The notes under the pieces are model-generated. The model did not search any database. It saw only the letters and a list, made by a program, of their open reading frames with translations, and was not told where the DNA came from. From Arcobacteraceae bacterium (GTDB lineage: Bacteria > Campylobacterota > Campylobacteria > Campylobacterales > Arcobacteraceae), in contig JALNYH010000002.1 of NCBI GenBank assembly GCA_023229945.1, positions 21,548 through 85,547 on the forward strand: DNA of 64,000 nt, in the 5' to 3' direction. The position numbers and the translations under genes are program-made. Shown piece by piece: positions 2,379 to 60,826 of this stretch; position 1 is the stretch's first letter, and each line of letters begins with the position of its first letter.

Positions 2379-5538
<3,160 letters not shown>

Positions 5539-7212: not shown

Positions 7213-7226
7213 TTGACTTAGGTCAA
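7213..7226 (+). promoter_or_regulatory. FNR/DNR-type box TTGAC-TTAG-GTCAA
   Basis: Centre 7219.5. Extended -10 TGtTAAACT at 7246..7254 (hexamer starts 29.5 nt from the centre). Upstream of the Crp/Fnr gene at 7293. Confidence 0.7.
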
Positions 7227-7292
7227 ATTCTTTTTCTTAATTTTTTGTTAAACTTTAAAATTCAAGAAAATAATTAAGAAAGAGGTTTTAAT

Positions 7293-9292: not shown

Positions 9293-10709
9293 TTTTAATA
9301 CTTTACAATATGAATCAAAAAAATTAGGTGTTATGTATTTTACAGTAGCAGCTATACTTTTAGGGGCTCAATTATTACTAGGACTAGTTGCTGCAATTCA
9401 GTTTATTTATCCAAGTTTTTTATTTGAAATTTTAGATTTTAATGTTGCTAGAATGGTACATATTAATGCTCTTGTAGTTTGGTTACTTTATGCGATGATT
9501 GGTTCTGTTTACTTTTTGATGCCAGATGAAACTGGGATTGAAACTGTAGGAATTGGTCTTGGCAAACTTGGATTTTATGTCTTAACTGCAGCTGTTACTG
9601 TTGTTGTTTTGGTATATATTTTGGTACAAGTTGGACCTGCTAGTGAATCTACAATATGGCTTATTAATGAAGGTAGAGAATATATAGAAGCTCCAAGATG
9701 GGCTGATATTGGTATCGTTGTAGTTGTTTTAGTTTTTTTAGCAAATGTTTATCTAACTGCTATAAAAGGTGAAAGAACAGGAATTATGACTGTATTGATG
9801 GCTGACCTTATGGCTCTTGCTGGGCTTTATTTAGCTGGTATGTTTTATACAGACAATATTTCTATGGATCAATACTGGTGGTGGTGGGTTATCCACTTAT
9901 GGGTTGAAGCAACTTGGGAAGTATTCGTAGCTTCTATTATTGGATGGGCGTTAATCAAGATTATTGGTGCAAACAGAGAAATAGTAGAAATGTGGTTATG
10001 GATTGAAGTTGCAATGCTTTTTGGTTCTGGAATTTTGGGTATAGGACACCATTATTTTTGGATTGGAACACCTGAATATTGGTGGGAAATTGGGGCATTA
10101 TTTAGTGCTTTAGAGCCTATTCCATTGGTTGCTATGTTTGTACATGTTATGTATGACTGGGGTAAAGAAGCTGGAGTCAAAAAAGCTCATGGTGAAGAAG
10201 CTGTTATGAACAACAACCCTGCATTTTTATGGTTTGTTGGGAGTGCATTTGGAAACTTCCTTGGTGCTGGTGTATGGGGCTTTTTCCACACATTACCACA
10301 AGTAAATATTTATACACATGGTACTCAGTTTACTGCAGCTCATGGTCACCTTGCATTTTTCGGTGCTTTTGCGATGGCGATGATTGCTATGTTTTATATG
10401 GGTGTTCAAGCTACCAACGGTATAGAAAGAATGAAAATGACATTTGCATCAAAAATGGGATTTGCATTGATTTGTATCGGTGTTGTAGGGATGACTGTAG
10501 CTCTTACAATAGCAGGTTATGGACAAGTTCTTGTTGAAAGAGCTCAAATGGGTGCTACTTGGGAAGCTTACTTTATCTCTCAAAATGGTCATTGGTTCCT
10601 TCAAGCGATGGGCTGGAGACTTGTAATGGGTATTGTAACACTTGTTGGTTTTGCTTATTTGGTTTATGATTTGCTAACAATTGGTAAATCTAAAGTTCAA
10701 AACGGTTAA
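9282..10709 (+). CDS. NorB-like nitric oxide reductase large subunit (second copy)
   Basis: Start moved to MVNSFNTLQY (ATG 9282, 11-nt overlap with the upstream stop). [19 protein letters not shown] and [12 protein letters not shown] conserved as in cNOR NorB. Confidence 0.8.
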   Translation: MVNSFNTLQYESKKLGVMYFTVAAILLGAQLLLGLVAAIQFIYPSFLFEILDFNVARMVHINALVVWLLYAMIGSVYFLMPDETGIETVGIGLGKLGFYVLTAAVTVVVLVYILVQVGPASESTIWLINEGREYIEAPRWADIGIVVVVLVFLANVYLTAIKGERTGIMTVLMADLMALAGLYLAGMFYTDNISMDQYWWWWVIHLWVEATWEVFVASIIGWALIKIIGANREIVEMWLWIEVAMLFGSGILGIGHHYFWIGTPEYWWEIGALFSALEPIPLVAMFVHVMYDWGKEAGVKKAHGEEAVMNNNPAFLWFVGSAFGNFLGAGVWGFFHTLPQVNIYTHGTQFTAAHGHLAFFGAFAMAMIAMFYMGVQATNGIERMKMTFASKMGFALICIGVVGMTVALTIAGYGQVLVERAQMGATWEAYFISQNGHWFLQAMGWRLVMGIVTLVGFAYLVYDLLTIGKSKVQNG

Positions 10710-12720: not shown

Positions 12721-14289
12721 ATGAAAACAACGATTTTATATACTATGGTTTTGACTCTTTTTTTAAGTAATGCAAATGCTATTGATAGTGCGGCTGGGCA
12801 TATGGTAGAAGCATTGCCTAAAAAAGAAGTTGGGAAAGAGCTTTATAATCAATATTGCTCATCATGTCACCATACCAAAAGAGTAGGAAAAGATGGGCCA
12901 CCTTTACTACCAGACAATCTAAAAAAATATACCATCAATGACCTAGCTTCAAAAATCAAAGATGGCTTTCCTCAAACACTTATGCCAAAATATGATTTTC
13001 TAAATCCATATGAGCTTTTGAAAATTGCTCAATATATCAAGTCTGATTCGGATGTAGATACTACATGGAATAGTGAAGATATCACAAAATCTATTGTGAC
13101 ATTTGATGACCCATATTCACCACTTGATATCAAAGACAAAGAGCAAATTTTGCCAGTTGTAGAAAGAGATGGCAATAAAGTTTGGATTATGGAAGATACG
13201 AGAGTTTTGAGTAAATTTGAATTAGCCAATGTACATGGCGGAATCAAATACACAATGGATGCAAAAAACATATATGTACCTACTAGAGATGGATATATAC
13301 AAAGATATTCACTACAAAGTGGACAAAGACTCAACAAAACTAGAGCTTGTATAAATCTACGCAATATTTCTCTTAGTCGAGATGGAGAAAAAATATTTGC
13401 CACATGCCTCTTACCAGAGCAACTCGTAATTCTAGATTCTCAAACAATGCTACCAAGTCATATAGAAAAGCTTGATGGCAAAGTTTCGGCACTGTATGAG
13501 TTTTATTCCAAAGATGAAGCTGTATTTACTTTTAGAAATAAACCATTGTTAGCTACAATCAACACAAACACTTTTGAAATCAAATATCAAACAATAAAAG
13601 AGCCAATTGAGGACTTTTTCATAGACCCATTTGAGGATTTTTTGATAGGAACAGCAAGAAGAGGTGATATATTGAGTGTGTATGACCTCAATAAAAATAA
13701 GTATGTTTTTGAACATGCAATGAAAGGTATGCCACATCTTTTTTCTGCTACTTATTGGTATGAAAATGGTAACTTTTATTTTGCAACTCCACATATCAAA
13801 AAACCTTATTTGACTATATGGAAAATGTATGACTGGGAATTTACAAAACAAGTTGAAATAGGTGGCGATGGTTTTTTTGTCAAAACACATCCAAATACTC
13901 CTTATCTTTGGACGGATAATGGAAGTGACGAGCTAGTATTGATATCAAAAAAAGATTATCAAATCAAAAAAATAGTACCTAGAAAAGGGAAACAATATAT
14001 CCATACAGAATATAGTGGAGATGGTAAATATGCCTATTTGAGTATATACGAAAAAGATGGAGAGATTATGGTCTTGGATACTCAAAATTTCAAAGAATTA
14101 GCTTCATATGATGCAAATATGCCAGTTGGTAAATATAATTTTATCAATAAAAACAGAGAATTTTATCCAAGGCTTTTTGGGATTGATATTTTTAAAGAAA
14201 AATGCAACAATACTCTACCTTGTAATACAAATGGGCTAAACAAATATGAAAGCCAAAGTTTAAGTGACTTTCTTGAGTCAATCAAATAA
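12721..14289 (+). CDS. nirN: NirN-like cd1-family protein (c-heme + beta-propeller; dihydro-heme d1 dehydrogenase family)
   Basis: Start moved to MKTTILYTMV (ATG 12721 after GGAGG). CSSCH heme c motif plus cd1-type propeller length. Follows nirS. Confidence 0.75.
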   Translation: MKTTILYTMVLTLFLSNANAIDSAAGHMVEALPKKEVGKELYNQYCSSCHHTKRVGKDGPPLLPDNLKKYTINDLASKIKDGFPQTLMPKYDFLNPYELLKIAQYIKSDSDVDTTWNSEDITKSIVTFDDPYSPLDIKDKEQILPVVERDGNKVWIMEDTRVLSKFELANVHGGIKYTMDAKNIYVPTRDGYIQRYSLQSGQRLNKTRACINLRNISLSRDGEKIFATCLLPEQLVILDSQTMLPSHIEKLDGKVSALYEFYSKDEAVFTFRNKPLLATINTNTFEIKYQTIKEPIEDFFIDPFEDFLIGTARRGDILSVYDLNKNKYVFEHAMKGMPHLFSATYWYENGNFYFATPHIKKPYLTIWKMYDWEFTKQVEIGGDGFFVKTHPNTPYLWTDNGSDELVLISKKDYQIKKIVPRKGKQYIHTEYSGDGKYAYLSIYEKDGEIMVLDTQNFKELASYDANMPVGKYNFINKNREFYPRLFGIDIFKEKCNNTLPCNTNGLNKYESQSLSDFLESIK

Positions 14290-14321
14290 TGATAAATTAA
14301 AAACATAAAATAAGGAAAACA

Positions 14322-15134
14322 ATGAAAACTTTTAAAACATTACTAATACTACTATTTTGCGGAATAAGCCTAAATGGTCAGAGTTTTGCCACGGTAAATG
14401 GTGAAAATGTCACAATAGAAGATATAAACATAGTGCTAAAATCATACGAACAAGCACCAGCTTTTAGTGAATTATCAAAAGTAGATAAAGAGTTTGTAAT
14501 CAATCAAGCAATAGAAGCAAAACTAATACAACAAATTGCAAAAAAAGAAAAAATCCAAAATAGAGATGATTATACGAGTGCCTTGAGCGATATACAAAAT
14601 CAACTTTTGATAGAAATATGGATGAAAACAAATTTGGAAAAAATTACTATCACAAAAGAAGAAGTTGAAACTTCTTATAAGCAAAATATAGCTGATTACA
14701 AACAGCCTTTACAAGTAAAAGCTAGGCATATTATAGTAGAAACTCAAAAAGAAGCCCAAGATATAATAAATGAGCTAAACAACACAAAAACAGATATTCA
14801 AGGAAAATTCATAGAACTTGCAAACACAAAATCCATAGAACCTACAGCCAATACAAGAGGTGGGGATTTGGGATGGTTCAAACAAGGTGATATGCTAGAA
14901 GAATTTTGGCAAGAATCTTTGTCTTTAGAGGTAGAAAGCTACTCCAATAAACCTTTGCAAACCCCTTTTGGATACCATATAGTATTTCTTGATGGCAAAA
15001 AAGAACCATACACTATCAGCCTAGAAAATGTATATACAGCTATAGAAAACAAACTAAAAATGGACAAACTACAACTAAGTGTTGGCAAAAGACTAGAAGA
15101 AATCAAGAAAAATGCAAAGATTTCTATAAATTAG
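14322..15134 (+). CDS. parvulin-type peptidyl-prolyl cis-trans isomerase (PpiC/SurA-like), periplasmic
   Basis: 270 aa. Signal peptide, ARHIIV...GGDLGWF...FGYHIV parvulin motifs. Confidence 0.8.
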   Translation: MKTFKTLLILLFCGISLNGQSFATVNGENVTIEDINIVLKSYEQAPAFSELSKVDKEFVINQAIEAKLIQQIAKKEKIQNRDDYTSALSDIQNQLLIEIWMKTNLEKITITKEEVETSYKQNIADYKQPLQVKARHIIVETQKEAQDIINELNNTKTDIQGKFIELANTKSIEPTANTRGGDLGWFKQGDMLEEFWQESLSLEVESYSNKPLQTPFGYHIVFLDGKKEPYTISLENVYTAIENKLKMDKLQLSVGKRLEEIKKNAKISIN

Positions 15135-15188
15135 CTTCAAAATTTATTTGAGATAGATATTTATATGACCACACTGCTAGTATAAAAA

Positions 15189-15944
15189 TTAAAATAAACT
15201 AGCTTGTTGTGGTTTTTTTTCTTCTTTAATATGCTTTTCAATCCAAGTTATAAATTCATTTTTAAACTTAATACCTTTGATTTTTCCATGGTATTTATCA
15301 ATAATAAATAAATCTTTATATTTATTAGTTGGTGTATAAGTTTTATCTTCTTTTTGTATCACGGCTTCATGGATTAAATATTTATTCAAATCTTGTGTTT
15401 TTTGAAATAAATCTTCTGCTTCATCTTTTAAATATTGCACTACCTCAGAAGCTGTATAGCCATTATTTTCTCTATAGATGAACTCTATTTCATCTTTTTT
15501 TATCTTACTTTGTTCCATAAATAAATTTTTATTAGATAAATAAACTTTTATTTTTTTATTGTTGTCTACCCCTCGAAGTATATTGTCATAACTTCCTTTA
15601 CTCATGCCATCCCATATAACAAAAGTAAACTCACTATCTATTGTCATAGCTTTATCTTTTTCTTGTTGTCGTTCTCGTTCTTTTTTAATGCTATTTGAAA
15701 CTTCAATATACTTTGTCTTAAAACTTTCATTTGCTTTATATCTAGGACACATAGAAATGGAATAAACCGTTATCTTACAATAATTTAATGATGCACAATA
15801 ATCTTGTACTAATGTATCAACTCCAGAAGCATCACCAATTATTATTTCAAAATTTTGTTCAATTATTTTATTAATACTTGTTTTAACCTCTTGAGGAAGT
15901 TCTTTAATTGATATAGAACCACTTATAAAAACTTTATTTTTCAT
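15189..15944 (-). CDS. SLOG/DUF2493/DprA-like Rossmannoid domain protein with an unknown C-terminal domain
   Basis: 251 aa. KVFISGSISI...EIIIGDASGVDTLVQDY...FVIWDGMSKGSYDNI pattern. ATGA overlap with the upstream PRTase gene. Family call is by eye only. Confidence 0.45.
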   Translation of the reverse strand: MKNKVFISGSISIKELPQEVKTSINKIIEQNFEIIIGDASGVDTLVQDYCASLNYCKITVYSISMCPRYKANESFKTKYIEVSNSIKKERERQQEKDKAMTIDSEFTFVIWDGMSKGSYDNILRGVDNNKKIKVYLSNKNLFMEQSKIKKDEIEFIYRENNGYTASEVVQYLKDEAEDLFQKTQDLNKYLIHEAVIQKEDKTYTPTNKYKDLFIIDKYHGKIKGIKFKNEFITWIEKHIKEEKKPQQASLF

Positions 15945-16663
15945 CTTTTAACATCCTTGAGTGGAATGAAAAAGAAATTTACTTTTTTATTGAAATCATA
16001 TAACTTATACATGCTTTCACATATTGAAGCAGTTGTACCCATTACATCATCAATAAGTACAAAAGTATCACTAATATTTGATTGACTTAAATCTATAGAA
16101 TATTTATTAAACTGTTGTGTTGATAAATTTATCATGCTTTTGCTTGATACTTGAGTATTTTTAGAAATAATTGTTTTTAGCGGGATGCTATTTATCGCTG
16201 ATAATTTGGTTGCAATTTCATCAGGTATTTGAGAACTTGAAGGTATAAAAACAATCTTTAAATCAGTATAATTTTCTTTTAGATACTTAATATATCCATT
16301 AAAATGAGAAATTATTTCATCAACATAAGTTTCTCTTATTTCTTGTTTTATTGGGTCTCTCTTTAAATACTTCATCTCATACAATTTTTTTCCAAAATAT
16401 GTGTATTTTTGATATTCTTGACCCTTATATTCAAATGTTAAAATATGAGTAAAAAGATTTTGATTAAAATCTTGAAGGATCTCAAACTCTTTGTAAAAGT
16501 CTAGAATAACACCCTGTGCAATTAGAGTTTTTTGAAAAAATATTTTACATTGTAAATGATTATTTTGTAAAGAAGTATCTTGTATATATTCAATGATTTC
16601 ATTATTAATATTTACGGGTACTTTTTTAGCTTTAATTACAATTTTAAAATCATTTACAACCAT
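15941..16663 (-). CDS. ComF-like type I phosphoribosyltransferase-domain protein with a novel N-domain
   Basis: C-terminal PRPP loop FVLIDDVMGTTASI and IVFIPSS strand. No ComF Cys4 finger. Start placed at MVVNDFKIV (ATG 16663). The track start 16738 lies inside the conserved leader repeat. Confidence 0.6.
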   Translation of the reverse strand: MVVNDFKIVIKAKKVPVNINNEIIEYIQDTSLQNNHLQCKIFFQKTLIAQGVILDFYKEFEILQDFNQNLFTHILTFEYKGQEYQKYTYFGKKLYEMKYLKRDPIKQEIRETYVDEIISHFNGYIKYLKENYTDLKIVFIPSSSQIPDEIATKLSAINSIPLKTIISKNTQVSSKSMINLSTQQFNKYSIDLSQSNISDTFVLIDDVMGTTASICESMYKLYDFNKKVNFFFIPLKDVKR

Positions 16664-16745
16664 CCTAACCCTTTTAAACTTTATACTATATTTGATATAA
16701 ACTTTTAACTTAAATACAAATAATACAACATAGTTCATCGATAGA

Positions 16746-16890
16746 CTAACTATTTATTCAACCTACATTATACACAAAATACCCTAAAAATAAATAAATG
16801 CCATACATACAAAATATTAGATAATCCAACAATTATAAATACATTAAATAAAGCAATTATAAAACTTTTTACTAAGAAATATTGCAAAAG
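16746..16890. repeat. copy A of a ~140-nt promoter/leader repeat (partner at 17882..18018)
   Basis: Direct repeat, roughly three-quarters identical by eye. Identical blocks aactatttattcaacc, acattata, actaagaaa and attgcaaaag. Minus-strand TGTGTATAAT -10 lies inside. Confidence 0.7.
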
Positions 16891-17123
16891 CCTATTTAAT
16901 GGTACCTGTACTTTTTTTAACCCTTATCTTTAAAAAAGACATTCATATAGAGCAACGCACCTATTTTAGTTATATAATAGGGTGTATTTGGTATCATAAT
17001 TCTTCTTATTCTTACCATTTTTATCTCTAATATTTAGATATTAAAAATGTTACAAAAATAAAATCCATTTATTTAAGCATATTATAATCTGGAATTAATT
17101 AGTATACTGTCTTTAGATTTAGA

Positions 17124-17285
17124 TTAAATTTCATAGCAAGATATAATTTCATCAACATTATATCCAGATGCAAGTAACACACTTTTTACATCTTTTTTAG
17201 ATAGTGCCTTAATTGTTTGCACTTTTACAGGTATTTCTCCTTGTAAAGTAAAACTAACTCTATATGTTCTCATAATATTTGACAT
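17124..17285 (-). CDS. possible 53-aa protein downstream of the P-loop gene
   Basis: Hand-translated MSNIMRTYRVSFTLQGEIPVKVQTIKALSKKDVKSVLLASGYNVDEIISCYEI. AAAGGAAAAG RBS. No family recognised. Confidence 0.35.
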   Translation of the reverse strand: MSNIMRTYRVSFTLQGEIPVKVQTIKALSKKDVKSVLLASGYNVDEIISCYEI

Positions 17286-17387
17286 TAAACTTTTCCTTTA
17301 TATTATAAATATTTAATCACTAACGATTAAAATAAGTCAATCAATTATCCATGAAGAAATTGATTGACTCCACTTATTTGTTATCTT

Positions 17388-17864
17388 TTAGACTAAGTCA
17401 TATATCTTTTGTTTAACTACCTGAGCTTTTTTCTTTGGGTCTTTTTCACTAATAGTTATAATTTGTAAATTTTTTAGACTCGAATAATAATTTTGAAGTT
17501 CACTTATATTTAATTGTGCATGTAAACACCACTTATTCTCTAATGCAATTAAATATACATCTGAATCTTTGTATAAATCTTTAAGAATTTTTATTGAATC
17601 ATTGGAAGGTTCTTTTGTTGGACAAAAAGCACTGATAATATAATCTGGTTTTGAACTGAGTTGATTTAATCTACTATTTATCTCATTAATATATCCTGCT
17701 TCTCCCCAATCATCATTTGATTGCGACTGAACACAAAACTTCTTATTACATAGTTCATAAAACTTATTTTTATAAAATCTTTCTCTACCATTAAATAGTT
17801 CTTTGATAATAAAACTTTTACCCCAATTTTGGAAACCTGTGATTAAAAAAACTTTTTGTTTCAT
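17388..17864 (-). CDS. small P-loop NTPase-like protein
   Basis: Start moved to MKQKVFLITG (ATG 17864, AAGGA RBS). Walker A-like GFQNWGKS. 158 aa, otherwise unassigned. Confidence 0.45.
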   Translation of the reverse strand: MKQKVFLITGFQNWGKSFIIKELFNGRERFYKNKFYELCNKKFCVQSQSNDDWGEAGYINEINSRLNQLSSKPDYIISAFCPTKEPSNDSIKILKDLYKDSDVYLIALENKWCLHAQLNISELQNYYSSLKNLQIITISEKDPKKKAQVVKQKIYDLV

Positions 17865-17881
17865 ATATATCCTTTTATAAG

Positions 17882-18018
17882 CCAACTATTTATTCAACCC
17901 ACATTATATAAAACACAACCTTCGAATAAACAAATAACATACATTAAAAATATCATATAACAAAACAACTATAAATAAAACAATTAGAAAACTTTTAACT
18001 AAGAAAACATTGCAAAAG
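17882..18018. repeat. copy B of the promoter/leader repeat (partner at 16746..16890)
   Basis: Immediately upstream (minus strand) of the P-loop gene. Contains a TATATAAT -10-like element at the position matching copy A. Confidence 0.7.
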
Positions 18019-18149
18019 TTCTGTAAATCTTACTTACCCGTAACTTCAAATACGATAAAACTTAGTAAAAACTCAACATATCTTTTAGTAAACTTTCTTT
18101 TTTTTGTTATAATTTACACTAAATTTAATATATTTGAGGAATATCGCCA

Positions 18150-18461
18150 ATGGGAACAAAACTTGTATTAGAGAGATTGAAAACTATAAAATCAAAGTAT
18201 CAACAAGATGGTTTCAATATCATAGCACTTTTTGGCTCTTATGCTACAAATTCTCAAAATGACACGAGTGATATAGATTTGCTATATGATGTTGATAAGT
18301 CATTTTTAGACAAATACAAAGGTTTTCGTTCTGTATCAAAAGTTATGGAAATACAAAATGAATTATCTAGCTTACTCCATACAAAAGTGGATTTAACATC
18401 TCCATCAGGTCTAAATCAAAAAATAAAAGATGATATAACTTCAAAGGCTATATATTTCTAA
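18150..18461 (+). CDS. MNT-type nucleotidyltransferase (MntA antitoxin family of HepT/MNT type VII TA modules)
   Basis: 103 aa. LFGSYATNSQNDTSDIDLLYDV = GSx10-11(D/E)xD pol-beta NTase motif. Confidence 0.8.
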   Translation: MGTKLVLERLKTIKSKYQQDGFNIIALFGSYATNSQNDTSDIDLLYDVDKSFLDKYKGFRSVSKVMEIQNELSSLLHTKVDLTSPSGLNQKIKDDITSKAIYF

Positions 18462-18578
18462 AGATATAAAAACATTCATAGCCATGATTATGATGGTGTA
18501 AATCAAACAGCTATCAGATACGGTTTACCTGAACTGTTGCGTATATATAATAGTATACTTGATAAGCAAGTCAGATAG
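18462..18578 (+). pseudogene. C-terminal remnant of a HepT (DUF86) toxin gene
   Basis: No start codon. The frame after the MNT stop reads RYKNIHSHDYDGVNQTAIRYGLPELLRIYNSILDKQVR*, i.e. a HepT Rx4HxY-like motif (K-NIHS-H-D-Y) plus the C-terminal helix. About 75 N-terminal residues are missing. Confidence 0.5.
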
Positions 18579-18769
18579 AGGAAATGAGAAAAGCAAAGCC
18601 TAATAGAATTTAAAAAAGTTCCATTTTGTAAACTTAGCACCTTCCTTTATTCGTGCCATTTATATATCTTATATTTTGATATAAAATAATACAAAAATAA
18701 AACATATCTTATTGAAAATATTACAATTTATGATTATTTGTTATCTATTAGATATCCTGCTCCCCAGAA

Positions 18770-19333
18770 TTATCTAACCTTCCGTCTTTCTTTCCACTTA
18801 TAATCCGTATCTTTTGTGACATAACTAAAAAACATCGTTCCAGAATTTCTCCATGCGTCAAGTAAGATTCCTTCATCAAATGGTCTTCCTTTGGCGGTGA
18901 TGCTTATGGCGTGATGTTCGTGGAAGTAGCTTCCTTGATTGGCTACTACTTCGTAGATACCGAGGGTGGGGTATTCTTCTGTTTTGAGATATGATACTAT
19001 ATCACTTACCCAATGATGACACAATCCTCTTTCTCTTTGATTTTGATTTACCAAAAAGTTTTGAAATGATGGTGGGGCTACTAAATTATAACTATTGGCT
19101 AGATACATTGCATAGTAGATACTTTTATTTGCTACATCTCGTGCTTCTTGTTTTGTGATTTGAGGGGAAAGATTTTGAATCATTTGGGAAAGTAGCTCAA
19201 TATTTTGTACTGTTTTGGGGTCGGTTTTGGTCACTTCGATAGTGTTATTGGAATTAAGTGCTACGCTATCATATTTGACACTACATCCTGTGAATATAAA
19301 AAAAGATAGTAAAGATAAGATAATGGTTTTCAT
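18770..19333 (-). CDS. hypothetical lipoprotein
   Basis: 187 aa. Lipobox LSFFIFTGC. No family recognised. Confidence 0.6.
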   Translation of the reverse strand: MKTIILSLLSFFIFTGCSVKYDSVALNSNNTIEVTKTDPKTVQNIELLSQMIQNLSPQITKQEARDVANKSIYYAMYLANSYNLVAPPSFQNFLVNQNQRERGLCHHWVSDIVSYLKTEEYPTLGIYEVVANQGSYFHEHHAISITAKGRPFDEGILLDAWRNSGTMFFSYVTKDTDYKWKERRKVR

Positions 19334-19449
19334 TGGGTGATTTTATCAAATTTTTGCTGTAGATGTGATTTGAGGACAAGAATCACCGGATGAATCCGGC
19401 GTTCCGTAAGAAGCATATGAATCTGGTGTTCCAAACAATATATTTGGGA

Positions 19450-19812
19450 TTACTCCACTATACACCTTGAAGTGTGAAAAATTCTCTCATAATCACTAGA
19501 TTTGAATACATCTTCTACGATTTCCCAACCCAGTTTTTGGTTGATAACCAAACTTTGGGCTACTTTTCTCACGGCTCTACTTTCGCAAAGGATATTTTGT
19601 CCGTTGTAAAATGCAGTTTTTACATCATCCATCCTATCTGTAGTGATAAGATAATGTGCGGATATTGCCATTACCAAAACCACAATCACAGCAGGTAAAC
19701 CTATTTTGAAACTACCTTTTGGCATAAAAGGTCTTGTTGTGACATATATTGCCACAATAATTATAAATGCAGCTATTGCTAGATAGCCTCCTTCTAGTTC
19801 AAGAAATCTCAT
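19450..19812 (-). CDS. hypothetical 2-TM membrane protein, last gene of the heme d1 operon
   Basis: 120 aa. Overlaps the nirDL-like stop by 14 nt. A ccgga-tgaa-tccgg hairpin lies downstream at about 19392..19405. Confidence 0.5.
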   Translation of the reverse strand: MRFLELEGGYLAIAAFIIIVAIYVTTRPFMPKGSFKIGLPAVIVVLVMAISAHYLITTDRMDDVKTAFYNGQNILCESRAVRKVAQSLVINQKLGWEIVEDVFKSSDYERIFHTSRCIVE

Positions 19813-20806
19813 TCAAAATCCTTTGTTCAAATTTGTCAAATTCATTACTAAAATATACGATTCTTACTTTCTTGAACTCTTTTAAAGAGTGCAAAATCAT
19901 ATTTGATTTAAACTCTATTTCATTTGCAATTGTCTCTATAATCTTTTGTAATTCTTGGCTACTTTGGGCATGAATCATAGTAAATAAATTGTATTTCCAC
20001 TCTTTATATACAGGTCTTAAATAACAATGGCTAACACTACTAAAACTGGCTGCTTTTTTGCCTATTTCCCCAGCCATATTTTCATCTATTTCCCATACTA
20101 CCATAGCATTTGAGCCAAAACCTGCTTTTTTGTGGTTTAAAATAGATGCAAATCTTCTCATGACTCCAGAGCTTAATAACTCTCCACAAACAGTAAATAA
20201 TCTTTCATAGCTAATCCCCAGAGTATCTATAATATATCTAAAAGGCTCTTTAGTAAACTCAATATCTTTTTGCAAAACTTCTATTATTTTATAATACTCA
20301 TCATTTAGCTCAATAGTTGTATAAGTTTTTTGTACTACTTCTTCTTTGATACTTTTGTTTTTGGTGGTGTCTAGTTTGACAGCTATTTTAAACATCTTAA
20401 TAGTAGGCAAGATAAGATAGTTTTTTGCTTTTGTTTTTGTAGCTAAAAAATCTATGGTTTTGTCTAAAGTAAGCTTTGAATTTGGTGGTAAAGCTATGGT
20501 AAACCATACATTAAACTTATGACTTCTTAGATAATTGTGTGAAATTCCTGGGTGGGAGTTTATAATCATTATTGCATCTTCTATATCTTTTTCATCAATT
20601 TCAAATGCCACTAAAGATGATTTGTATCCTAGTTTTTTGGTATCAAATATAGCTGAAGTTTGGCGTATTATACCTTCACTTTTTTGCTTATTCAATATCT
20701 CTATCACCTCATCTTCACTAATTCCAAATTTATTCCCAATATCCAAAAATGGTCTTGAAGTAAGTGGAAAGTTGTGTTGAATTTCAAGCAAGATTTCATC
20801 TGTCAT
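19799..20806 (-). CDS. fused two-module Lrp/AsnC-like siroheme decarboxylase (NirDL/NirGH, AhbAB-like)
   Basis: 335 aa, equal to two about 165-aa AsnC-like modules. Lies in an operon with nirE/nirF/nirJ. Confidence 0.7.
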   Translation of the reverse strand: MTDEILLEIQHNFPLTSRPFLDIGNKFGISEDEVIEILNKQKSEGIIRQTSAIFDTKKLGYKSSLVAFEIDEKDIEDAIMIINSHPGISHNYLRSHKFNVWFTIALPPNSKLTLDKTIDFLATKTKAKNYLILPTIKMFKIAVKLDTTKNKSIKEEVVQKTYTTIELNDEYYKIIEVLQKDIEFTKEPFRYIIDTLGISYERLFTVCGELLSSGVMRRFASILNHKKAGFGSNAMVVWEIDENMAGEIGKKAASFSSVSHCYLRPVYKEWKYNLFTMIHAQSSQELQKIIETIANEIEFKSNMILHSLKEFKKVRIVYFSNEFDKFEQRILNEIS

Positions 20807-26061: not shown

Positions 26062-26075
26062 ATGACTTAAGTCAA
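26062..26075 (+). promoter_or_regulatory. FNR/DNR-type box aTGAC-TTAA-GTCAA (nosZ promoter)
   Basis: Centre 26068.5. TGtTAAACT at 26095..26103. The 42 nt from the box to the -10 are about 90% identical to 7214..7256. Confidence 0.7.
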
Positions 26076-26133
26076 ATTCTCTTCGTTAATTTTTTGTTAA
26101 ACTTCGCTTACATTTCAAAATTAGGAGAGAGAC

Positions 26134-39872: not shown

Positions 39873-42071
39873 ATGTTTAAAAATTTTTATATTAAGACTA
39901 AGTTACTTATTCTTTTTATTATCCCATTGTTGGCTGTCTTAATTCTTCTTGTGGTTAAGTTTATAGAATTAAACCAAAGCCTTTCCAATGCAACCAAAGC
40001 AGCTTCTATTGAAGAGATTAGAGGAATTGGTGACATCATACACAATTTACAAGTTGAAAGAGGCTTAAGTGCTAGATATATAGCTTCAAATGGAACAAAT
40101 TTTAAAGATGTATTGCAAGAACAAAGAACTCTATCAGCGAGTTCTATCAATAAGTTAATAAATTTCCAAACACAACAAAACAATATCATAGCTTCTCAAA
40201 TTGTTAAAGATTTAGACACAAAAAGAAATCTTATAGATACATTATCATATAATTTAAATCAAAGTGGCAGTTACTATAGTGATATGATATCTCAACTTCT
40301 AAATTACTATCGAACCATTTTACTAAAATCAAAATTACCACAAATTAAAAATGATTTACTAGCTCACTATTGGCTTTTACTAGCAAAAGAAAACTTTGGT
40401 CAATTAAGAGCAAATTTAGCAATAACTTTTCGACAAAAATATTTTTCTGATGATATATTACAAAAATCTAGTGCTAATCAAGCTACTATAATACTTGGCT
40501 TTCAAAACTTTGAATCAGATGCAAATATCGATATTGTCAATTATTTCAAAAAAACTTTTCAAGGAGAAAGTGTAGATACTACAAACAATATGATTCAAAT
40601 TGCTTTTGAAAAGCAAAAAGATGATTGTGGGAATATTGAACCATCTTTATGGTTTGACACAGCCACAAAAAGTATTGATATTCTAAAAAATATTGAAGAT
40701 TATAGTATAGCACATATAGAATCAACTATGAAAAAAACAATCTCTTCTATTTATTTTGAGATTATGAAAGACTTAATCATCAGCTTGGTTCTAATCATTG
40801 TAGTAATATTTTTATATCTTCAAATCTCAAAAGATATTCTTACATCTTTAGAGTCATTTAAAAATGGGTTATCACTATTTTTTGATTTCTTAAATAAAAA
40901 ATCAAATAATGCCAACAGTATTGATATAAATAATAAAGATGAATTTGGTCAAATGGCTAAATTAATAAATGAAAATATAGAAAAAACTCAAGTCATGATT
41001 TCACTAGATAATGAAGTAATAGCTGATGCAAAAAATGTTGTTGCAAGGGTAAATAATGGATGGTATAGCCAATGTATTGAAGCAACAACTACAAATGAAT
41101 CACTAGAACAATTTAAAGAAAGTGTTAATGAAATGATAGTAAATACAAAAAATAGATTTTTAGATGTAAATAATATCTTAAATCTCTATACAAAACATGA
41201 CTACACAAAAACTCTTCACCTAAAGCCTACAGATGAAAAAGGTGGGGTTTTAGAATCATTAATTTTAGGTGTTAACTCTTTACAAAATTCTATTACACAG
41301 ATGCTTATCCAAAACCAAACAAATGGAACTACACTTGATAAAAGCTCAAATATTTTACTTCAAAATGTAAATACCCTAAGTCATAGTGCAAATTCCGCTG
41401 CAGCTGCATTAGAAGAAACTGCTGCGGCACTTGAAGAAATTACTGCCACAGTTGTCAGTAATTCATCAAATATTCTTCAAATGTCACAATATTCAAAAGA
41501 AGTTATAAACTCAGCAAAAAAAGGGCAAGAATTAGCCAAAAACACATCAACAGCTATGGATGAAATAACAACTCAAGTTCATACTATAAATGAAGCTATA
41601 GCTGTAATCGATCAAATATCATTTCAAACAAATATTCTATCCTTAAACGCTGCAGTTGAAGCAGCAACTGCTGGAGAAGCTGGAAAAGGATTTGCAGTAG
41701 TTGCTGCAGAAGTGCGAAACCTAGCATCAAGAAGTGCTGAAGCTGCCAAGGAGATAAAGTATATTGTAGAGATAGCTACATCCAAAGCCAATTTAGGTAA
41801 ATCAATAAGTAGTGAAATGATAAAAGGATATGATGAACTTTTGCAAAATATTGATAAAACTACAGCAACAATTTCAGAAATTGCAAATGCTTCCAAAGAA
41901 CAAGAAGCTGGTATTACACAAATAAATGATGCAGTAACTGGACTTGATCGCCAAACTCAAGAAAATGCCTCCATAGCATCTCAAACACATGATATTGCAA
42001 TACAAACTGACAATATTGCAAAAGCAATAGTATCTGATGTCATAAATAAGCAATTTATTGGCAAAAGTTGA
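39873..42071 (+). CDS. methyl-accepting chemotaxis protein with a NIT-like (nitrate/nitrite-sensing) periplasmic domain
   Basis: 732 aa. TM1, large helical sensor with IIHNLQVERGLSARYIASNG (NIT-like motif), TM2, HAMP, conserved MCP signalling hairpin ([34 protein letters not shown]). Confidence 0.8.
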   Translation: MFKNFYIKTKLLILFIIPLLAVLILLVVKFIELNQSLSNATKAASIEEIRGIGDIIHNLQVERGLSARYIASNGTNFKDVLQEQRTLSASSINKLINFQTQQNNIIASQIVKDLDTKRNLIDTLSYNLNQSGSYYSDMISQLLNYYRTILLKSKLPQIKNDLLAHYWLLLAKENFGQLRANLAITFRQKYFSDDILQKSSANQATIILGFQNFESDANIDIVNYFKKTFQGESVDTTNNMIQIAFEKQKDDCGNIEPSLWFDTATKSIDILKNIEDYSIAHIESTMKKTISSIYFEIMKDLIISLVLIIVVIFLYLQISKDILTSLESFKNGLSLFFDFLNKKSNNANSIDINNKDEFGQMAKLINENIEKTQVMISLDNEVIADAKNVVARVNNGWYSQCIEATTTNESLEQFKESVNEMIVNTKNRFLDVNNILNLYTKHDYTKTLHLKPTDEKGGVLESLILGVNSLQNSITQMLIQNQTNGTTLDKSSNILLQNVNTLSHSANSAAAALEETAAALEEITATVVSNSSNILQMSQYSKEVINSAKKGQELAKNTSTAMDEITTQVHTINEAIAVIDQISFQTNILSLNAAVEAATAGEAGKGFAVVAAEVRNLASRSAEAAKEIKYIVEIATSKANLGKSISSEMIKGYDELLQNIDKTTATISEIANASKEQEAGITQINDAVTGLDRQTQENASIASQTHDIAIQTDNIAKAIVSDVINKQFIGKS

Positions 42072-44839: not shown

Positions 44840-45055
44840 TATTCAAGAAATATTAAAAAAACTTTAGGTATAATTTAGGTGAGATGTTATCAAAGGACTT
44901 ATTCTATACATAACCGGCAAACTTGTATCTTCTTTTAGCACAAAGGAGGTGTTGTTGCTTGTTGTTGAGGTGTTATAAAAAGTCAAATTCACTTTTTTTT
45001 ATGTACTCGTCGCCGGTTACTTCTGAAATATTAACACAAATCAAAACCCATTTCC

Positions 45056-45069
45056 TTGACTTTTGTCAA
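45056..45069. promoter_or_regulatory. orphan FNR/DNR-type box TTGAC-TTTT-GTCAA with no CDS nearby
   Basis: Centre 45062.5. Minus-strand TGtTAATAT (rc of 45028..45036) at the canonical 29.5 nt; plus-strand ATTAAT at 45092..45097. The 17-nt core cttgacttttgtcaaat is identical to the nrdD box. Confidence 0.55.
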
Positions 45070-45222
45070 ATTATTCAAACTTTTTATTTAAATTAATACA
45101 TTTTGTAATTTTTGTTTACAAATCTCAAAACTACGGTTACAATGTTTATCAGTTTTAGGAGGAGGATTCATGTGTGTGTAACCGCAGTTTTCAGATTATG
45201 GAAGTGGGACTTTAGTCCCGCA

Positions 45223-47012: not shown

Positions 47013-47136
47013 TTTAGTTTTTAGTTTGTAGAGGGTAGAGAAGATAATGAAGAAATAATTTTCCGTTACCACCTACCACCTACCACCTACCACCTACCAC
47101 CTACCACCTACCACCTACCACCTACCACCTACCACC
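47013..47136. repeat. heptad-repeat hairpin element, copy 1: conserved 54-nt core + (TACCACC)x10
   Basis: tttagtttttagtttgtagagggtagagaagataatgaagaaataattttccg, then ten exact TACCACC units (47067..47136). Homologous to 60822..60931. Confidence 0.85.
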
Positions 47137-49217
47137 TAAGCACCTAAAATCTCCTCATCACACTTCGGACAATACTCATGCTCACCACTTATATACCCAT
47201 GCACTGGACACACACTAAAAAGTGGAGTGATAGTCACATAAGGAAGTCTGAAATTTGTAATAACAGATTTCAAAAACTCCCTACAGCTATCACCACTTTC
47301 TAGTTTTTCATTCATATAAAGGTGAAGTACAGTTCCCCCTGTATATTTGCACTGCAAATCATCTTGATGAAGAAGTGCAGCAAATGGATCAGCAGAAAAA
47401 TCCACTTGAAGTTGAGATGAGTTGGTATAATATATATTTTCCCCCATTCCAGCTTGCAAAATATCTGGATATCTTTTGATATCTTCTTTTGCAAAACGAT
47501 AAGTAGTTCCTTCAGCTGGTGTTGCTTCAAGATTATACAAGTTTCCAGTTTGTTCTTGATAGCTAGTCATTAGCTCTCGTATAAAGTCCAAAATCTCCAA
47601 AGAGAGTTGTTTCCCAAATTCACTAGCAATATCATGCTTATCACTTGTAAAATTTCTCACCATTTCATTAAGCCCATTTACTCCAATAGTAGAGAAGTGA
47701 TTATTGAAGTTTTTTAGATACCTTTTCGTATATGGATAAAGTCCTCTATCAAACATTGTATTGACAAAAACTCTTTTCTTTTCCAAAGTCTCTTGAGCAA
47801 TATCGCAAAGTTCCTTGACTCTTAGCAACAGCTTCTTTTTATCCCCACTATAAAGATACCCAAGTCTTGCCATATTAAGTGTCACCACACCAATACTTCC
47901 AGTCATCTCAGCACTCCCAAAAAGCCCACCACCTCGCTTTAGAAGCTCTCTCAAATCAAGCTGAAGCCTACAACACATACTTCTTACATGACCTGGTTTA
48001 TAAGCATTTGGATTTTCACAAAGATTTCCAAATTCATCTTTTGTATATTGACTACCTATAAAGTTTTGGAAATAACTAGAACCTATTTTTGCACTATTTT
48101 CAAACAACACATCAGTATTTTCACCATACCAATCAAAATCTTCTGTGATATTTACCGTAGGAATCGGGAAAGTAAAAGGTTGTCCATTTTGGTCACCTTC
48201 TGTCATCACCTCATAATATGCTTTATTGATTAGATTCATCTCTTTTTGAAAATATTTATAAGTCATATCACTTAGATTTGATACCCCTCTAGCTCTTGCT
48301 TCTTCAATCAAATCATCATCGCTCACACCACTTAATAAATGTCTTTGATTTTTAGTAGGAATTTGGTCTTTTAGGTCACTTGGTACAGTCCAATCAATTG
48401 TCACATTTGTAAAAGGACTCTGACCCCAACGAGCAGGAACATTTAGATTATAAATAAAACTCCGAACTGCCTTTTTGACATCATTATATTCAAGCTTATC
48501 TTTGAAAACATAAGGAGCTAGATATGTATCAAAAGAGCTAAAAGCCTGAGCTCCAGCCCATTCACTTTGAAGTATCCCCAAAAAGTTTGCCATCTGACCA
48601 AGAGCCTCCCTAAAATGGCTCGGAGCTGAGCTTTCAACCCTACCTCTTATACCATTGAACCCCTCATCAAGAAGCACTCTCAAACTCCACCCAGCACAAT
48701 ATCCTGTTAGACAATCAAGGTCATGTATATGAATATCCCCATTTCTATGGGCGTATCCTTGAGTTTTGGTGTATATTTTATCAAGCCAATAGTTTGCTAT
48801 TAGTTTTCCAGCTAGATTATTGACAAGCCCAGCATTAGAATATCCAGTATTTGCATTGGCATTTATTCTCCAATCAGATTTGTTTATATATTCTTCTATA
48901 GAGCTTGTAGAGTTTACATAAGTAGTATCTTCATTAAGCCCCAAGATATGTTCTCTTTGCATCTTATGCAAGAATCTATATGTGATAAAAGATTTTGCCA
49001 CATCAAAATATTTAGCTTCAAAAAGTCTTTTTTCGATTGTATCTTGTATCTCTTCTACAGTTTGAAGATTGTTTTTTTCAATATCACCCATAACTTGTTT
49101 GAATATTTGTCCATCATATCTTGATATCACACTATCAAATGCCTTTTTTATAGCATCTTCTATCTTGAAAGCACGAAATTCTTCTTTACTTCCATCTCTT
49201 TTAAATATAAATTGCAT
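47136..49217 (-). CDS. nrdD: anaerobic ribonucleoside-triphosphate reductase NrdD, large fragment lacking the glycyl-radical domain
   Basis: Start at MQFIFKRDG (ATG 49217, GAGGG RBS). ATP-cone, class III RNR core, ends just after the Zn-ribbon CPVHGYISGEHEYCPKC. The stop TAG is formed at the edge of the heptad repeat. Confidence 0.85.
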   Translation of the reverse strand: MQFIFKRDGSKEEFRAFKIEDAIKKAFDSVISRYDGQIFKQVMGDIEKNNLQTVEEIQDTIEKRLFEAKYFDVAKSFITYRFLHKMQREHILGLNEDTTYVNSTSSIEEYINKSDWRINANANTGYSNAGLVNNLAGKLIANYWLDKIYTKTQGYAHRNGDIHIHDLDCLTGYCAGWSLRVLLDEGFNGIRGRVESSAPSHFREALGQMANFLGILQSEWAGAQAFSSFDTYLAPYVFKDKLEYNDVKKAVRSFIYNLNVPARWGQSPFTNVTIDWTVPSDLKDQIPTKNQRHLLSGVSDDDLIEEARARGVSNLSDMTYKYFQKEMNLINKAYYEVMTEGDQNGQPFTFPIPTVNITEDFDWYGENTDVLFENSAKIGSSYFQNFIGSQYTKDEFGNLCENPNAYKPGHVRSMCCRLQLDLRELLKRGGGLFGSAEMTGSIGVVTLNMARLGYLYSGDKKKLLLRVKELCDIAQETLEKKRVFVNTMFDRGLYPYTKRYLKNFNNHFSTIGVNGLNEMVRNFTSDKHDIASEFGKQLSLEILDFIRELMTSYQEQTGNLYNLEATPAEGTTYRFAKEDIKRYPDILQAGMGENIYYTNSSQLQVDFSADPFAALLHQDDLQCKYTGGTVLHLYMNEKLESGDSCREFLKSVITNFRLPYVTITPLFSVCPVHGYISGEHEYCPKCDEEILGA

Positions 49218-49273
49218 AATCACACCCTCAAAAATCGTTTTGTGTATATTAGCAAAAAGGGAAAAGGATTGTC

Positions 49274-49287
49274 TTGACTTTTGTCAA
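49274..49287 (-). promoter_or_regulatory. FNR/DNR-type box TTGAC-TTTT-GTCAA (nrdD promoter)
   Basis: Centre 49280.5. Minus-strand TGcTAATAT (rc of 49246..49254), hexamer 29.5 nt from the centre. Confidence 0.7.
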
Positions 49288-49295
49288 ATCAAAAG

Positions 49296-58753: not shown

Positions 58754-60826
58754 ATGAGATATAATAATACAAATTTTTTACAAAAAGATAGGGGATATTT
58801 AGTGTTAAATTCATTGACGGTAAAAGGTAAGTTACAAGTTGTAACTGCGTTGGTAGTTTTAGGTTTTGTGCTAATTGCATTGTTTAGTTATATAAGACTT
58901 AGTGCTCTAGATAAAGAATATAAAGATACAGTGGTAATAAGTGAAATAAAACAGCTTGTTAGTAATACTTTAATAAGTAATATAGAAGGGGCTTCAGCTA
59001 TTAGAATGATGATTTTAGCTCCAAATGATACACAAGCTCCGAAAACATTAGAAACAAATGTAGCTTCTGTTGAAGAAGCTATAAAAACTTTACAATCACC
59101 AAAGTATGCTAAAGCATCACAAGGGTTTACTAAGTTTAATATTGGTGAGTTACATACAAATTATGCAAATGTACTTCAATCAATTTTAATAAAAAGAGCA
59201 AAAGGTGAAGAAATTACTCCTGAAGATAATAAAAAAGTTGCAAAAAATCTTCGTCCTTACAAAGCAGCCCTAAATGAATGGTTAAAAGCAAATGATACAA
59301 AACAAATATCTCTTAGTGGTAAATTTGAAACTACAATAGCTTCTACTATTACTATATCTATTTTAATATCTTTGGTTATTATAATCTCAATATTTGTGAT
59401 TATATTGTTGATTGGCGGAAGTATAGTGAATTCTCTTCATACATTTAGTAATGGTTTAAAAGATTTCTTCAACTACTTAAATAAAACAACCAAAACAATA
59501 CAACTAATTCATATTGATGGTAAGGATGAGTTTAGTGTGATGGCTGATATGACAAATACAAATATCAAACATATTGAATCTCAAATCATAGAAGATGATA
59601 TGTTTGTATCTGATGTTAATAGATTTGCGAAAGAAATAGCTTCTGGAAATATGCTAGCAAAAATAGAAAAAAACACATCAACTCAAAACTTAGCAGAACT
59701 AAAAGAAATTCTTACTCAAATGCAAAAAAATTTAGAACATTCTATAGCAAGAAGTATCCCTATGCTTATAGAAATATTAGAAAGTTATACAAAACAAGAT
59801 TTTACAAAAAAATTCCCAGATGCTTATGGTAAAGTAGCCCTTAGTGTAAATTCTCTTGGTGAAAATATGTCAAAACTTCTTATGCAAAACTTACAAGATG
59901 GTATGGCACTAGATTATAGTACTGATGTTTTACTAGAAAATGTAGATGTACTAAGTCGTAGTGCAAACTCAGCTGCTGCATCTTTAGAAGAAACTGCTGC
60001 TGCATTAGAAGAAATCACAGCTACAGTTGTAAGTAATTCAAACAATGTAGCCCAAATGTCACAGTATTCAAATCAAGTAAGTAATTCAGCAAAAAAAGGA
60101 CAAGAGCAAGCTAGAAATACAACAACTGCTATGGATGAGATTACGGCTCAAGTAGCATTGATAAATGAAGCAATCACAGTAATAGACCAAATTGCATTCC
60201 AAACAAATATTCTATCCTTAAACGCTGCGGTTGAAGCTGCAACTGCTGGTGAGGCTGGAAAAGGATTTGCAGTAGTTGCTGCTGAAGTGCGAAATCTAGC
60301 ATCAAGAAGTGCTGAAGCTGCAAAAGAAATCAAAAACATAGTTGCAAATGCAACAAATAAAGCAAATGAAGGTAAATCTATAAGTAATGATATGATAAAA
60401 GGTTATGATGAGCTTTTAGGTAATATCAATAAAACTACAGCCGTTATTGCTGAAATTGCAAATGCTTCAAATGAACAACAAGCTGGTATCACCCAAATCA
60501 ATGATGCCGTAACAGGACTAGATCGTCAAACTCAAGAAAATGCGTCAATTGCATCACTTGTAAGAGAGATAGCAAGCGAAGCTGACCAATTATCAAAAAG
60601 AATGGTTGTTGATGCTTCTAGTAAAGAATTTTTTGGTAAAAACGAATTTCTAAAAGAATCAAAAAACAAAATCCCAACAAAAAATACACAAACAGTAGCT
60701 GTGAATAAATCAGTAGCAAAACCTCAAATAAAACATACCCATAATGAGAGCGTTAAACCTAAAACTCCACTAAAAACAATAACCCCAACCAAATCATCAA
60801 AAGATGACGAATGGGAGTCATTTTAG
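58754..60826 (+). CDS. methyl-accepting chemotaxis protein (helical-bundle sensor) with a C-terminal xWxxF tail
   Basis: 690 aa (start uncertain; GTG at LVLNS is possible). TM-sensor-TM-HAMP-MA. The signalling hairpin is nearly identical to the MCP at 39873. Ends DDEWESF. Confidence 0.85.

Follow-up and report, generated by a model that had tools for sequence, protein, structure and literature searches.

Integron platforms such as those of class 1 (attI1 with its cassette promoter, Pc) and of Vibrio cholerae (attIA) share a layout in which an outward promoter is followed by the point where cassettes are inserted, G|TT (the bar marks the crossover). In complete integrons of the Campylobacterota this head adjoins intI, which encodes the integrase, and cassettes downstream of it end in a second kind of site, attC. 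The subject here is a 64,000-nucleotide stretch of an Arcobacteraceae metagenome-assembled genome (MAG), hereafter the window, in which two homologous non-coding modules, A and B, precede unrelated genes. Comparison with other genomes suggests, with a probability of roughly 0.8, that each module is a copy of a Campylobacterota-type integron head, attI together with Pc. Unlike the known platform, the window and about 15 other loci hold the head alone, without intI, and there may be two or three heads per array. The module sequence is unrelated to attI1, attI2 and attI3, and its −10 hexamer lies only 15 nt before the crossover, whereas in known platforms the promoter lies inside or near intI.

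Homologous promoter regions in front of unrelated genes have reportedly been noticed before, by Matus-Garcia et al. in 2012, under the name of putative mobile promoters. An earlier reading of this DNA, the original prediction, had drawn attention to the same phenomenon in the window; here the propagation of the module is traced to an integron recombination site. On the integron side, the arrays that IntegronFinder classes as CALIN (clusters of attC sites lacking integrases) and SALIN (single attC sites lacking integrases) likewise hold attC cassettes with no integrase nearby, and their description regards CALIN cassettes as cut off from Pc (PMC4889954). Their definitions are silent on attI and Pc, whereas each mini-array described here keeps an attI/Pc head of its own. 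The unusual delta-attI-type cassettes of clinical class 1 and class 2 integrons show the same order of attC, open reading frame (ORF) and attI-derived site, and the sites are reported to be recombination-proficient for IntI1 (PMC12901181). Those sites are truncated attI1 or attI2 sequences of 11 bp to 238 bp with intI present, whereas the modules here are full length (~150 nt), carry a putative promoter and have no integrase nearby. Sedentary chromosomal integrons have been described as anti-phage stores (bioRxiv 10.1101/2024.07.02.601686), and the payloads here likewise include AbiTii, Shedu SduA, TIR, ThiF-like plus methyltransferase, PLD, DUF4917 and HNH genes; a phosphoribosyltransferase (PRTase)-like gene in the window weakly matches a retron type III-A effector model. 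Sedentary integrons, however, are large, mostly silent arrays behind one Pc, whereas the arrays here are short and each has its own predicted promoter. Insertion at attG sites outside integrons (bioRxiv 10.1101/2022.09.11.507474) also accounts for cassettes far from intI, but attG denotes loosely defined genomic sites without attI homology, whereas the sites here are clear homologues of attI.

None of the building blocks, from integrons, attI, Pc and attC to CALINs and delta-attI cassettes, is new. In the papers searched, neither the attI/Pc sequence of Campylobacterota integrons was found, nor full-length promoter-bearing attI heads without integrase in multiple or tandem copies on chromosomes and plasmids. 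Integron-finding software sees integrases and attC sites, and integrase-less arrays are thus treated as silent, disconnected stores. Because the attI sequence is unknown for most integrons, as stated in PMC4889954, IntegronFinder is blind to orphan heads; it scored S. autotrophica as 'In0 + CALIN' (PMC10295459). The comparison below defines the attI/Pc sequence of Campylobacterota integrons, and the head survives, apparently still exchanging cassettes, at many loci without integrase. Should the orphan heads be active, an integron would not have to be a single locus: expression would reach beyond the first positions of one array, and defence genes could be sampled at several expressed slots.

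The two modules lie in the same orientation:

17884..18018, minus strand: module A, attI/Pc-like integron head (repeat alignment, conservation in 12 copies, integrase-linked cores)
16748..16890, minus strand: module B, second attI/Pc-like head (repeat alignment, conservation in 12 copies)

The original prediction described a direct repeat, about three-quarters identical by eye, with exact shared blocks and a −10 element at the same relative position in front of unrelated coding sequences, and each of these points holds up. In a formal alignment, minus-strand positions 18018-17877 pair with 16890-16741 over ~143-151 nt at 78-82% identity, the gaps being one indel region of ~9 nt and one single-base gap. 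The Smith-Waterman score of A against B is 73, far above that of 500 dinucleotide-preserving shuffles of both intergenic regions (mean 19.1, standard deviation 2.9, maximum 31). The four exact blocks, AACTATTTATTCAACC, ACATTATA, ACTAAGAAA and ATTGCAAAAG on the plus strand, are present in both copies, and the −10 hexamer TATAAT is in register on the minus strand at 17903-17908 (A) and 16767-16772 (B), preceded in copy B by a TGTG extension. The genes behind A and B give no cross-match in a blastn self-search and match different protein families. A profile of both copies (nhmmer) recovers A and B with E values of 1e-38 and 1e-35 and no third copy in the window. The identity of A to B is 82%, and that of either one to copies in other genomes 78-86%; with A and B no closer to each other than to those copies, a recent local tandem duplication was rejected. 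A contig from another metagenome (L002, JGI 3300014203) equals window positions 16771-18331 at 100% and stops inside module B, an end that a break in the assembly at a multi-copy sequence could explain.

The identity of the modules comes from integrons that do have an integrase. The core of module A, GGTTGAATAAATAG, ends at G 17886, so that its crossover-type G|TT is 17886|17885-17884; the core of module B ends at G 16750, with TT at 16749-16748. In the form TATAAT-N9-GTTGAATAAATAG|TT, the core matches the integrase-proximal junction of ten confirmed integron loci, and the A and B cores thus correspond in sequence to the attI of complete integrons. One of the ten (L045) was found through the DNA pattern: its core lies 243 nt upstream of a divergent integrase gene that scores 408 bits on TIGR02249 (cut-off 265), and this integrase has hundreds of relatives at 77-88%, named Sulfurimonas, Arcobacter or Campylobacterota. 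The nine others were found through the integrase protein (L049; L050/L051/L052; L053, S. autotrophica; L060, Arcobacter sp.; L061; L062/L063; L066, Sulfurospirillum). In all nine, at a distance of 185-260 nt upstream of intI, stands a −10-like hexamer followed by ...(G/C)A(A)TAAATAG|TT. In L049-L053 and L060-L063 this reads ...GTTGA(A)TAAATAG|TT or a close variant at ~250-260 nt, and in L066 ...CAATAAATAG|TTAGTC at 185 nt. The promoter-like −10 box stands 15 nt before the crossover.

Closely related integrons also show where recombination takes place. L050 and L052 read ...AATAG|TTGTATCCGAAC, and L051, with the same integrase as L050, reads ...AATAG|TTATGCTCAT (TAG|TTATGCTC), followed by extra cassettes and then an attC ending in ...CAACCG|TTGTATCCGAAC, an insertion signature. 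The sequences of L062 and L063 agree in full as far as G|TT and differ right past it. Because L050/L051 and L062/L063 differ at G|TT, the conserved core can be read as the attI recombination site. A block further upstream, TTGCAAT...TG(A/T)CATAT (TTGCAAT...TGACATAT), is common to integrase-linked and orphan copies, and the whole ~150-nt module therefore seems to derive from the integron platform. The likeness of A and B thus appears to be one of shared descent from that platform, and not of co-regulation or of an RNA element. Long inverted repeats, GAACAAAGTGT...ACACTTTGTTC, lie between intI and attI in L050 (~9925-9990) and L053 (~9925-9985); these intI-upstream repeats of Sulfurimonas integrons are a candidate integrase-control operator, and the orphan modules are without them.

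Locus-to-locus comparison exposed a second repeat, ~68 nt long, at the 3' ends of payload genes. It has the anatomy of attC: R'' ATAAC, a spacer, L'' TGGAGCC, a variable stem, L' GGCTCA, a spacer and R' GTTA. In L'' one G is left unpaired, and the stems show compensatory changes, with a covariation of 0.211 against 0.102 in shuffles (0 of 500 as high) and 0.02-0.09 in slid controls. The window holds one such site, behind the gene that follows module A:

17388-17864, minus strand: P-loop-motif gene, 158 aa, Walker-A-like GFQNWGKS, payload of module A
17318..17385, minus strand: attC of the P-loop cassette (nhmmer and covariance model R1)
17324..17885, minus strand: canonical integron cassette with the P-loop-motif gene; it begins with the TT that follows module A and ends with the G of its attC
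17124..17285, minus strand: 53-aa ORF, starting past the attC crossover and called as a gene in two assemblies

The window site reads R'' GATAAC, L'' TGGAGTC..., L' ...GACTTA and R' G|TTAGTG, with the G at 17324. An nhmmer profile of five foreign attC sites matches 17386-17320 (E 1.8e-6), directly past the stop of the 158-aa gene, and covariance model R1 scores 17385-17318 at 72.7 bits, this site being among the 9 used for the model; in independent confirmed integrons (arrays L050-L053 and L066) the model matches at 36-85 bits. A cassette ending in attC, as found in complete integrons, is therefore present at 17318-17385. No second attC in the window rises above noise (the next match has 14.6 bits, E ~1), and with one detectable site the window falls outside the CALIN class, which takes at least two attC without an integrase. 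Nor does an intI of the TIGR02249 type adjoin the array: a tblastn search with the L045 integrase found none in the 64-kb window.

The complete integron of Sulfurospirillum sp. 1307 (L066) carries, as its sixth cassette, an 80%-identical homologue of the P-loop gene, which lies between two attC. That cassette starts ...CG|TTAGCTTACAAAAGGATATGATATG and the window cassette ...ATAG|TTGGCTTATAAAAGGATATATATG. The unit 17885-17324 is therefore a single cassette, joined to its head at the very position that an integrase would use. In Halarcobacter ebronensis the P-loop cassette and its attC stand behind a more diverged head, TATAATGTATTACTAATAATTAG|TT, between housekeeping genes, and no integrase was found within 8 kb of it. 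Past its attC (17318-17385) the window continues with the ORF at 17124-17285 and module B at 16748-16890, with no attC between them, which is the arrangement of delta-attI-type cassettes; the order attC, ORF, head is also found in a metagenome contig (L043) and in the Aliarcobacter plasmid pM830MA. No attC of its own was detected for the 53-aa ORF with the covariance model in the window.

Further copies of the module are numerous. Genome and metagenome collections were scanned for the pattern TAATGTNGGTTGAATAAATAG, and copies were found in Sulfurovaceae MAGs (L007, L009), an 'Epsilonproteobacteria' MAG (L010, identical to L044), L005 and six metagenome contigs (L040-L043, L045, L048). Matches in Psychrobacter (L004, L006, L008, L039, L046) and in L047 lie inside coding sequence and were set aside as chance or unrelated. 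In addition to A and B there are about 15 copies without integrase, on Sulfurovaceae and Arcobacteraceae chromosomes and on Aliarcobacter plasmids, often in tandem. Different genes follow every copy, and those that can be assigned are often of the defence-like kinds listed above, PLD and DUF4917 being those of pM830MA. In an alignment of 12 copies the similarity runs from the TTGCAAT block ~125 nt upstream to ...GGTTGAATAAATAG and is followed by unrelated sequence. TT, which lies outside the search pattern, follows ATAG in 11 of the 12, and in 10 of these 11 a purine comes next. Around the core, most pairs of copies are only 72-88% identical. Most copies have ordinary chromosomal genes upstream and no attC there. 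The L010/L044 junction reads ATAG|AG instead of G|TT, with no attC behind it. L005, a 5-kb contig (JARRQF010000288.1) labelled as a Candidatus Thiodiazotropha MAG, is probably mis-binned: its flanks are 94-95% identical to the Sulfurovaceae chromosome L009, with which it shares an identical 89-aa protein. L009 also has an extra, inverted head core at 4507-4541 (plus strand; 86% over 36 nt) before an 80-aa gene (4554-4796) that is missing from the otherwise syntenic L005.

Five Aliarcobacter plasmids match the 3.6-kb island described below, and do so at the modules only. One of them, pM830MA from a cultured isolate of Aliarcobacter cryaerophilus, carries three heads in one orientation within 9 kb, arranged as head, gene, attC (85 bits), small gene, head, DUF4917, TIR, ..., PLD, attC, the pattern that the window also shows. 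No intI was found within 9 kb on either side of these heads. Among PLSDB plasmids there was no Campylobacterota-type IntI, the best match being 51% identical and from a cyanobacterium.

Comparison of close relatives indicates that both the modules and their payloads come and go. In the window the modules belong to an island:

15137..18769, minus strand: 3.6-kb low-GC island between the stop of a peptidyl-prolyl isomerase (PPIase) gene and the stop of a lipoprotein gene, in a nir/denitrification locus

A relative with a 97%-identical lipoprotein (L055/L056/L057) is without the island: window position 15136 joins 18770 through an unrelated 53-nt spacer, and the lipoprotein and PPIase genes are 55 nt apart. 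A landfill-metagenome contig joins 15133 to 18770. In L058/L059 (87-89%) the matching site holds a conserved block (fragment 1, below), an intact pair of HEPN and MNT genes, and module A. Module A of L058 is 94.6% identical to that of the window up to the TT at 17884 and then leads into a different, 225-aa gene, past which lie the last ~40 nt of the SLOG-like gene, the second of the pair behind module B. Because the match between window and L058 ends at this TT, the payload of head A has been replaced from exactly G|TT. Two metagenome contigs, L041 and L042, are 98% identical upstream and part company past G|TTA, L041 with five cassettes and L042 with two different ones; they come together again precisely at the G|TT of two different attC, which is the mark of turnover by an integrase at an orphan head. 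In one metagenome run (X1), a contig sharing the core of module B diverges from 16747 downwards, and another with the same core diverges from 16779 upwards. The proposal in the original prediction of a modular cassette junction with swappable payloads thereby takes a definite form, an integron attI with its cassette promoter, behind which the payload changes exactly at G|TT.

How would such a locus work? Each head would combine an outward sigma-70-type promoter with the attI point GTTGAATAAATAG|TT, 15 nt past the −10 box. In a complete integron the head adjoins intI, whose product inserts circular, attC-bearing cassettes at G|TT, and the newest cassette is transcribed from Pc with a leader of ~10 nt and its own ribosome-binding site. 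The window offers two such heads, both facing the same way, and its 64 kb hold no integrase gene; head A would drive the P-loop cassette with its attC and then the 53-aa ORF, and head B the PRTase-like and SLOG-like pair. We infer that the TATAAT box fires, giving each mini-array its own expression, and that an integrase encoded elsewhere in the genome or the community still uses the orphan heads; for integrase action in trans at the present time the odds are roughly even. The predicted Pc has its TATAAT at a fixed distance in all copies, and a consensus promoter scan did not call the window copies.

Several observations count against this interpretation. The invariance of the 21-nt core in the 12 copies is partly a matter of ascertainment, the pattern having been used to find them. 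The −35 element is weak in the window (TTTATT) compared with the TTGATT of most copies, at a 17-nt spacer, which is why the promoter scan passed over the window copies; the sigma-70 consensus scan also yields a lower number of sites than shuffled sequence does. The module shows no recognisable inverted L-box. A single attC is detectable, and since the 53-aa ORF and the PRTase/SLOG pair have none, part of the island does not consist of canonical cassettes. The far breakpoint in L058 lies inside the SLOG gene and not at an att site, the distal breakpoint between L005 and L009 is not an attC, and some swaps were therefore not clean integrase events. Sequence comparison does establish the attI/Pc homology, the G|TT edge, one canonical cassette, the presence/absence polymorphism of the island and the change of payload in relatives.

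The heads could together form a distributed integron, in which promoter-bearing attI heads exist in many copies dispersed over the chromosomes and megaplasmids of Arcobacteraceae, Sulfurovaceae and relatives, and one integrase, encoded elsewhere in the genome or supplied by an incoming element, loads cassettes, many of them defence-like, into numerous independently expressed mini-arrays in trans, in contrast to one long and largely silent array behind one Pc; the heads may themselves be carried inside compound cassettes. This extension is tentative, with odds well short of even. They could also be relics, left over from two decayed integrons or one rearranged integron that lost intI and no longer recombining, persisting as promoters or because too little time has passed for decay. 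The absence of intI from the 64 kb, the last genes without attC, the truncated HEPN gene next door, the ATAG|AG junction without attC behind it in L010/L044 and the payload breakpoints outside att sites all fit such a history. Three independent pairs of close relatives, however, differ exactly at the G|TT of an integrase-less head, and in one pair the sequences meet again at an attC crossover, an outcome difficult to reach without an integron integrase; moreover, the core has been kept in about 15 integrase-less copies across families and replicons while the surroundings have drifted to 72-88%. Relics are the main rival, though less likely than not. It is unlikely that the module is instead a promoter block residing inside cassettes and spread because it allows expression anywhere in an array, even though module B, the L043 module and the second module of pM830MA are each preceded, in the same orientation, by an attC and so formally fall within a cassette-like unit, and though cassettes with internal promoters, such as toxin-antitoxin cassettes, are known (PMC4889954). 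Such a block would leave unexplained the ~100-150 nt of homology to the integrase-proximal region, the stop of conservation at G|TT and the start of the P-loop cassette there, and most copies have ordinary chromosomal genes and no attC upstream.

The original prediction had also raised a shared operator and a cis-acting leader RNA. A binding site for a transcription factor that co-regulates both operons would fit the conservation at least 100 nt upstream of the −10 box, and the TTGCAAT...TGACATAT block common to integrase-linked regions, but no regulator gene is consistently linked to the module, A and B (82%) are no more alike than copies in other families (78-86%), and the integron context accounts for the conservation; a shared operator is very unlikely, although the binding sites of an integrase are themselves operators of a kind. 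A structured leader RNA, a small RNA or the end of a mobile element (a miniature inverted-repeat transposable element, MITE, or an invertible promoter) has in its favour the repetition itself and nothing further, and is hardly credible. Very little of the conserved sequence lies past the predicted transcription start, an Rfam scan of 14000-20000 gave no match at E up to 1, and the modules and leaders fold no better than shuffles (z from about −0.5 to +1.2, with extremes of −0.54 and +1.16 over both strands); the consensus of the 12 copies folds at −0.85 kcal/mol with 0 compensatory pairs. A MITE, an insertion-sequence end or an invertible promoter was rejected as there are no shared flanking inverted repeats, only weak AT-rich pairs that differ between A and B. 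In a 16-mer scan, IMG/VR viral contigs gave 28 matches, none of which extends to the module profile, and the island has no match among GenBank phage genomes; a phage origin was rejected on these grounds. Of the earlier suggestions, then, the modular junction stands and the leader RNA falls, while the integron context, with the attC at 17318-17385 and the homology to attI, had been missed.

With the orphan-head reading in place, the rest of the island can be described. Its GC content is 0.24-0.25, against 0.30-0.36 in the flanks, which are formed by the PPIase gene (14322-15134, plus strand) and the lipoprotein gene (18770-19333, minus strand). The surrounding denitrification locus holds a cytochrome cd1 nitrite reductase, nirJ/nirF-type genes and sirohaem genes, and a scan of the window for tRNA genes found none. 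On the minus strand the order is fragment 1, the HEPN remnant and MNT gene (opposite strand), module A, the 158-aa gene, the 53-aa ORF, fragment 2, module B, the PRTase-like gene and the 251-aa gene. The features other than those already given are:

18646..18726, minus strand: fragment 1, conserved non-coding block that marks the island's left end and is a diverged form of fragment 2 (sequence comparison)
18463..18591, plus strand: remnant of a HEPN (HepT-like) toxin gene, about its last 129 nt (comparison with L058)
18150..18461, plus strand: MNT-type nucleotidyltransferase gene, antitoxin of a HEPN/MNT pair (PF18765, E 2.5e-11; PF01909, E 6e-9)
17005..17100, minus strand: fragment 2, conserved block with the start of a short ORF, MVRIRRIMIPNTPYYIT..., ~110 nt upstream of module B
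15189..16738, minus strand: payload of module B, a two-gene operon of the PRTase-like gene and the 251-aa gene
15941-16663, or to 16738 from an upstream ATG, minus strand: PRTase-like gene (PF24390, PADLOC PRTase_III-A)
15189-15944, minus strand: gene of the 251-aa protein, without family match

The MNT gene is intact and is transcribed divergently from module A. Its HEPN partner has lost the first ~213 nt, the homology of the window skipping L058 8886-9099, so that the window has no intact HEPN-MNT pair; L058 and L059 keep a 119-aa HepT-like gene that overlaps MNT.

The payload of module B is harder to assign. The PRTase-like gene carries the motif/loop VLIDDVMGTTASI, and its assignment is weak, with E 5e-4 for PF24390 PRTase-CE, below the curated cut-off, and E 2e-4 for PADLOC PRTase_III-A. 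The 251-aa protein has no family match in the profile libraries; by eye, its N-terminus looks SLOG/LOG-like. Sequence searches of the PDB with the three payload proteins gave nothing significant. No attC was found behind the 251-aa gene, including the 52 nt past its end. Directly past the 3' end of a confirmed intI, in L061 at 1435-2428, a truncated fragment ORF is fused to the last 23 codons of a PRTase gene that is 87% identical to that of the window; behind this remnant come a homologue of the 251-aa protein, 43% identical, and an attC of 40.8 bits. The PRTase/SLOG-like pair is therefore a cassette elsewhere; in L061 it lies on the 'wrong' side of intI.

Fragment 2 lies between the 53-aa ORF and module B. 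It is 85% identical over 154 nt to a block before the module in L043 and 76-79% identical to fragment 1. Blocks of this type recur upstream of heads or beside intI (L043 ~2260-2413, L061 1561-1640), and combine a promoter-like stretch with 20-35 codons from the start of an ORF (MVRIRRIMIPNTPYYIT, MARIRRIVIPNVPHHITQRG and, in L061, MPRRPRIDMVGYYHIINRGVDRR) that is always truncated. We take this ORF to resemble the N-termini of IS200/IS605-type Y1 (COG1943) transposases, a likeness for which Pfam gave no match. Short ORFs starting 'MARIRRIVIPN...' had no match in Pfam or in a tblastn search of plasmids.

Other repeats of the window are of different kinds. Tandem arrays of the heptamer CCACCTA, of ~10 copies at 47070-47138 and ~15 copies at ~60824-60941, lie just past the stops of nrdD (47136-49223, minus strand) and dnaX (60931-62715, minus strand). 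A 600-nt direct repeat, 41291-41885 and 59866-60460, is 75-83% identical and encodes the signalling domain in two paralogous methyl-accepting chemotaxis proteins; a nitrate/nitrite-sensing NIT domain is present in one of them. Intergenic repeats at 7214-7255, 26063-26104, 45028-45071 and 49246-49289 carry the palindromes TGACTTAGGTCA and TTGACTTTTGTCAA; these blocks look like Crp/Fnr-family boxes, and the locus encodes a regulator with cNMP-binding and HTH_Crp_2 domains.

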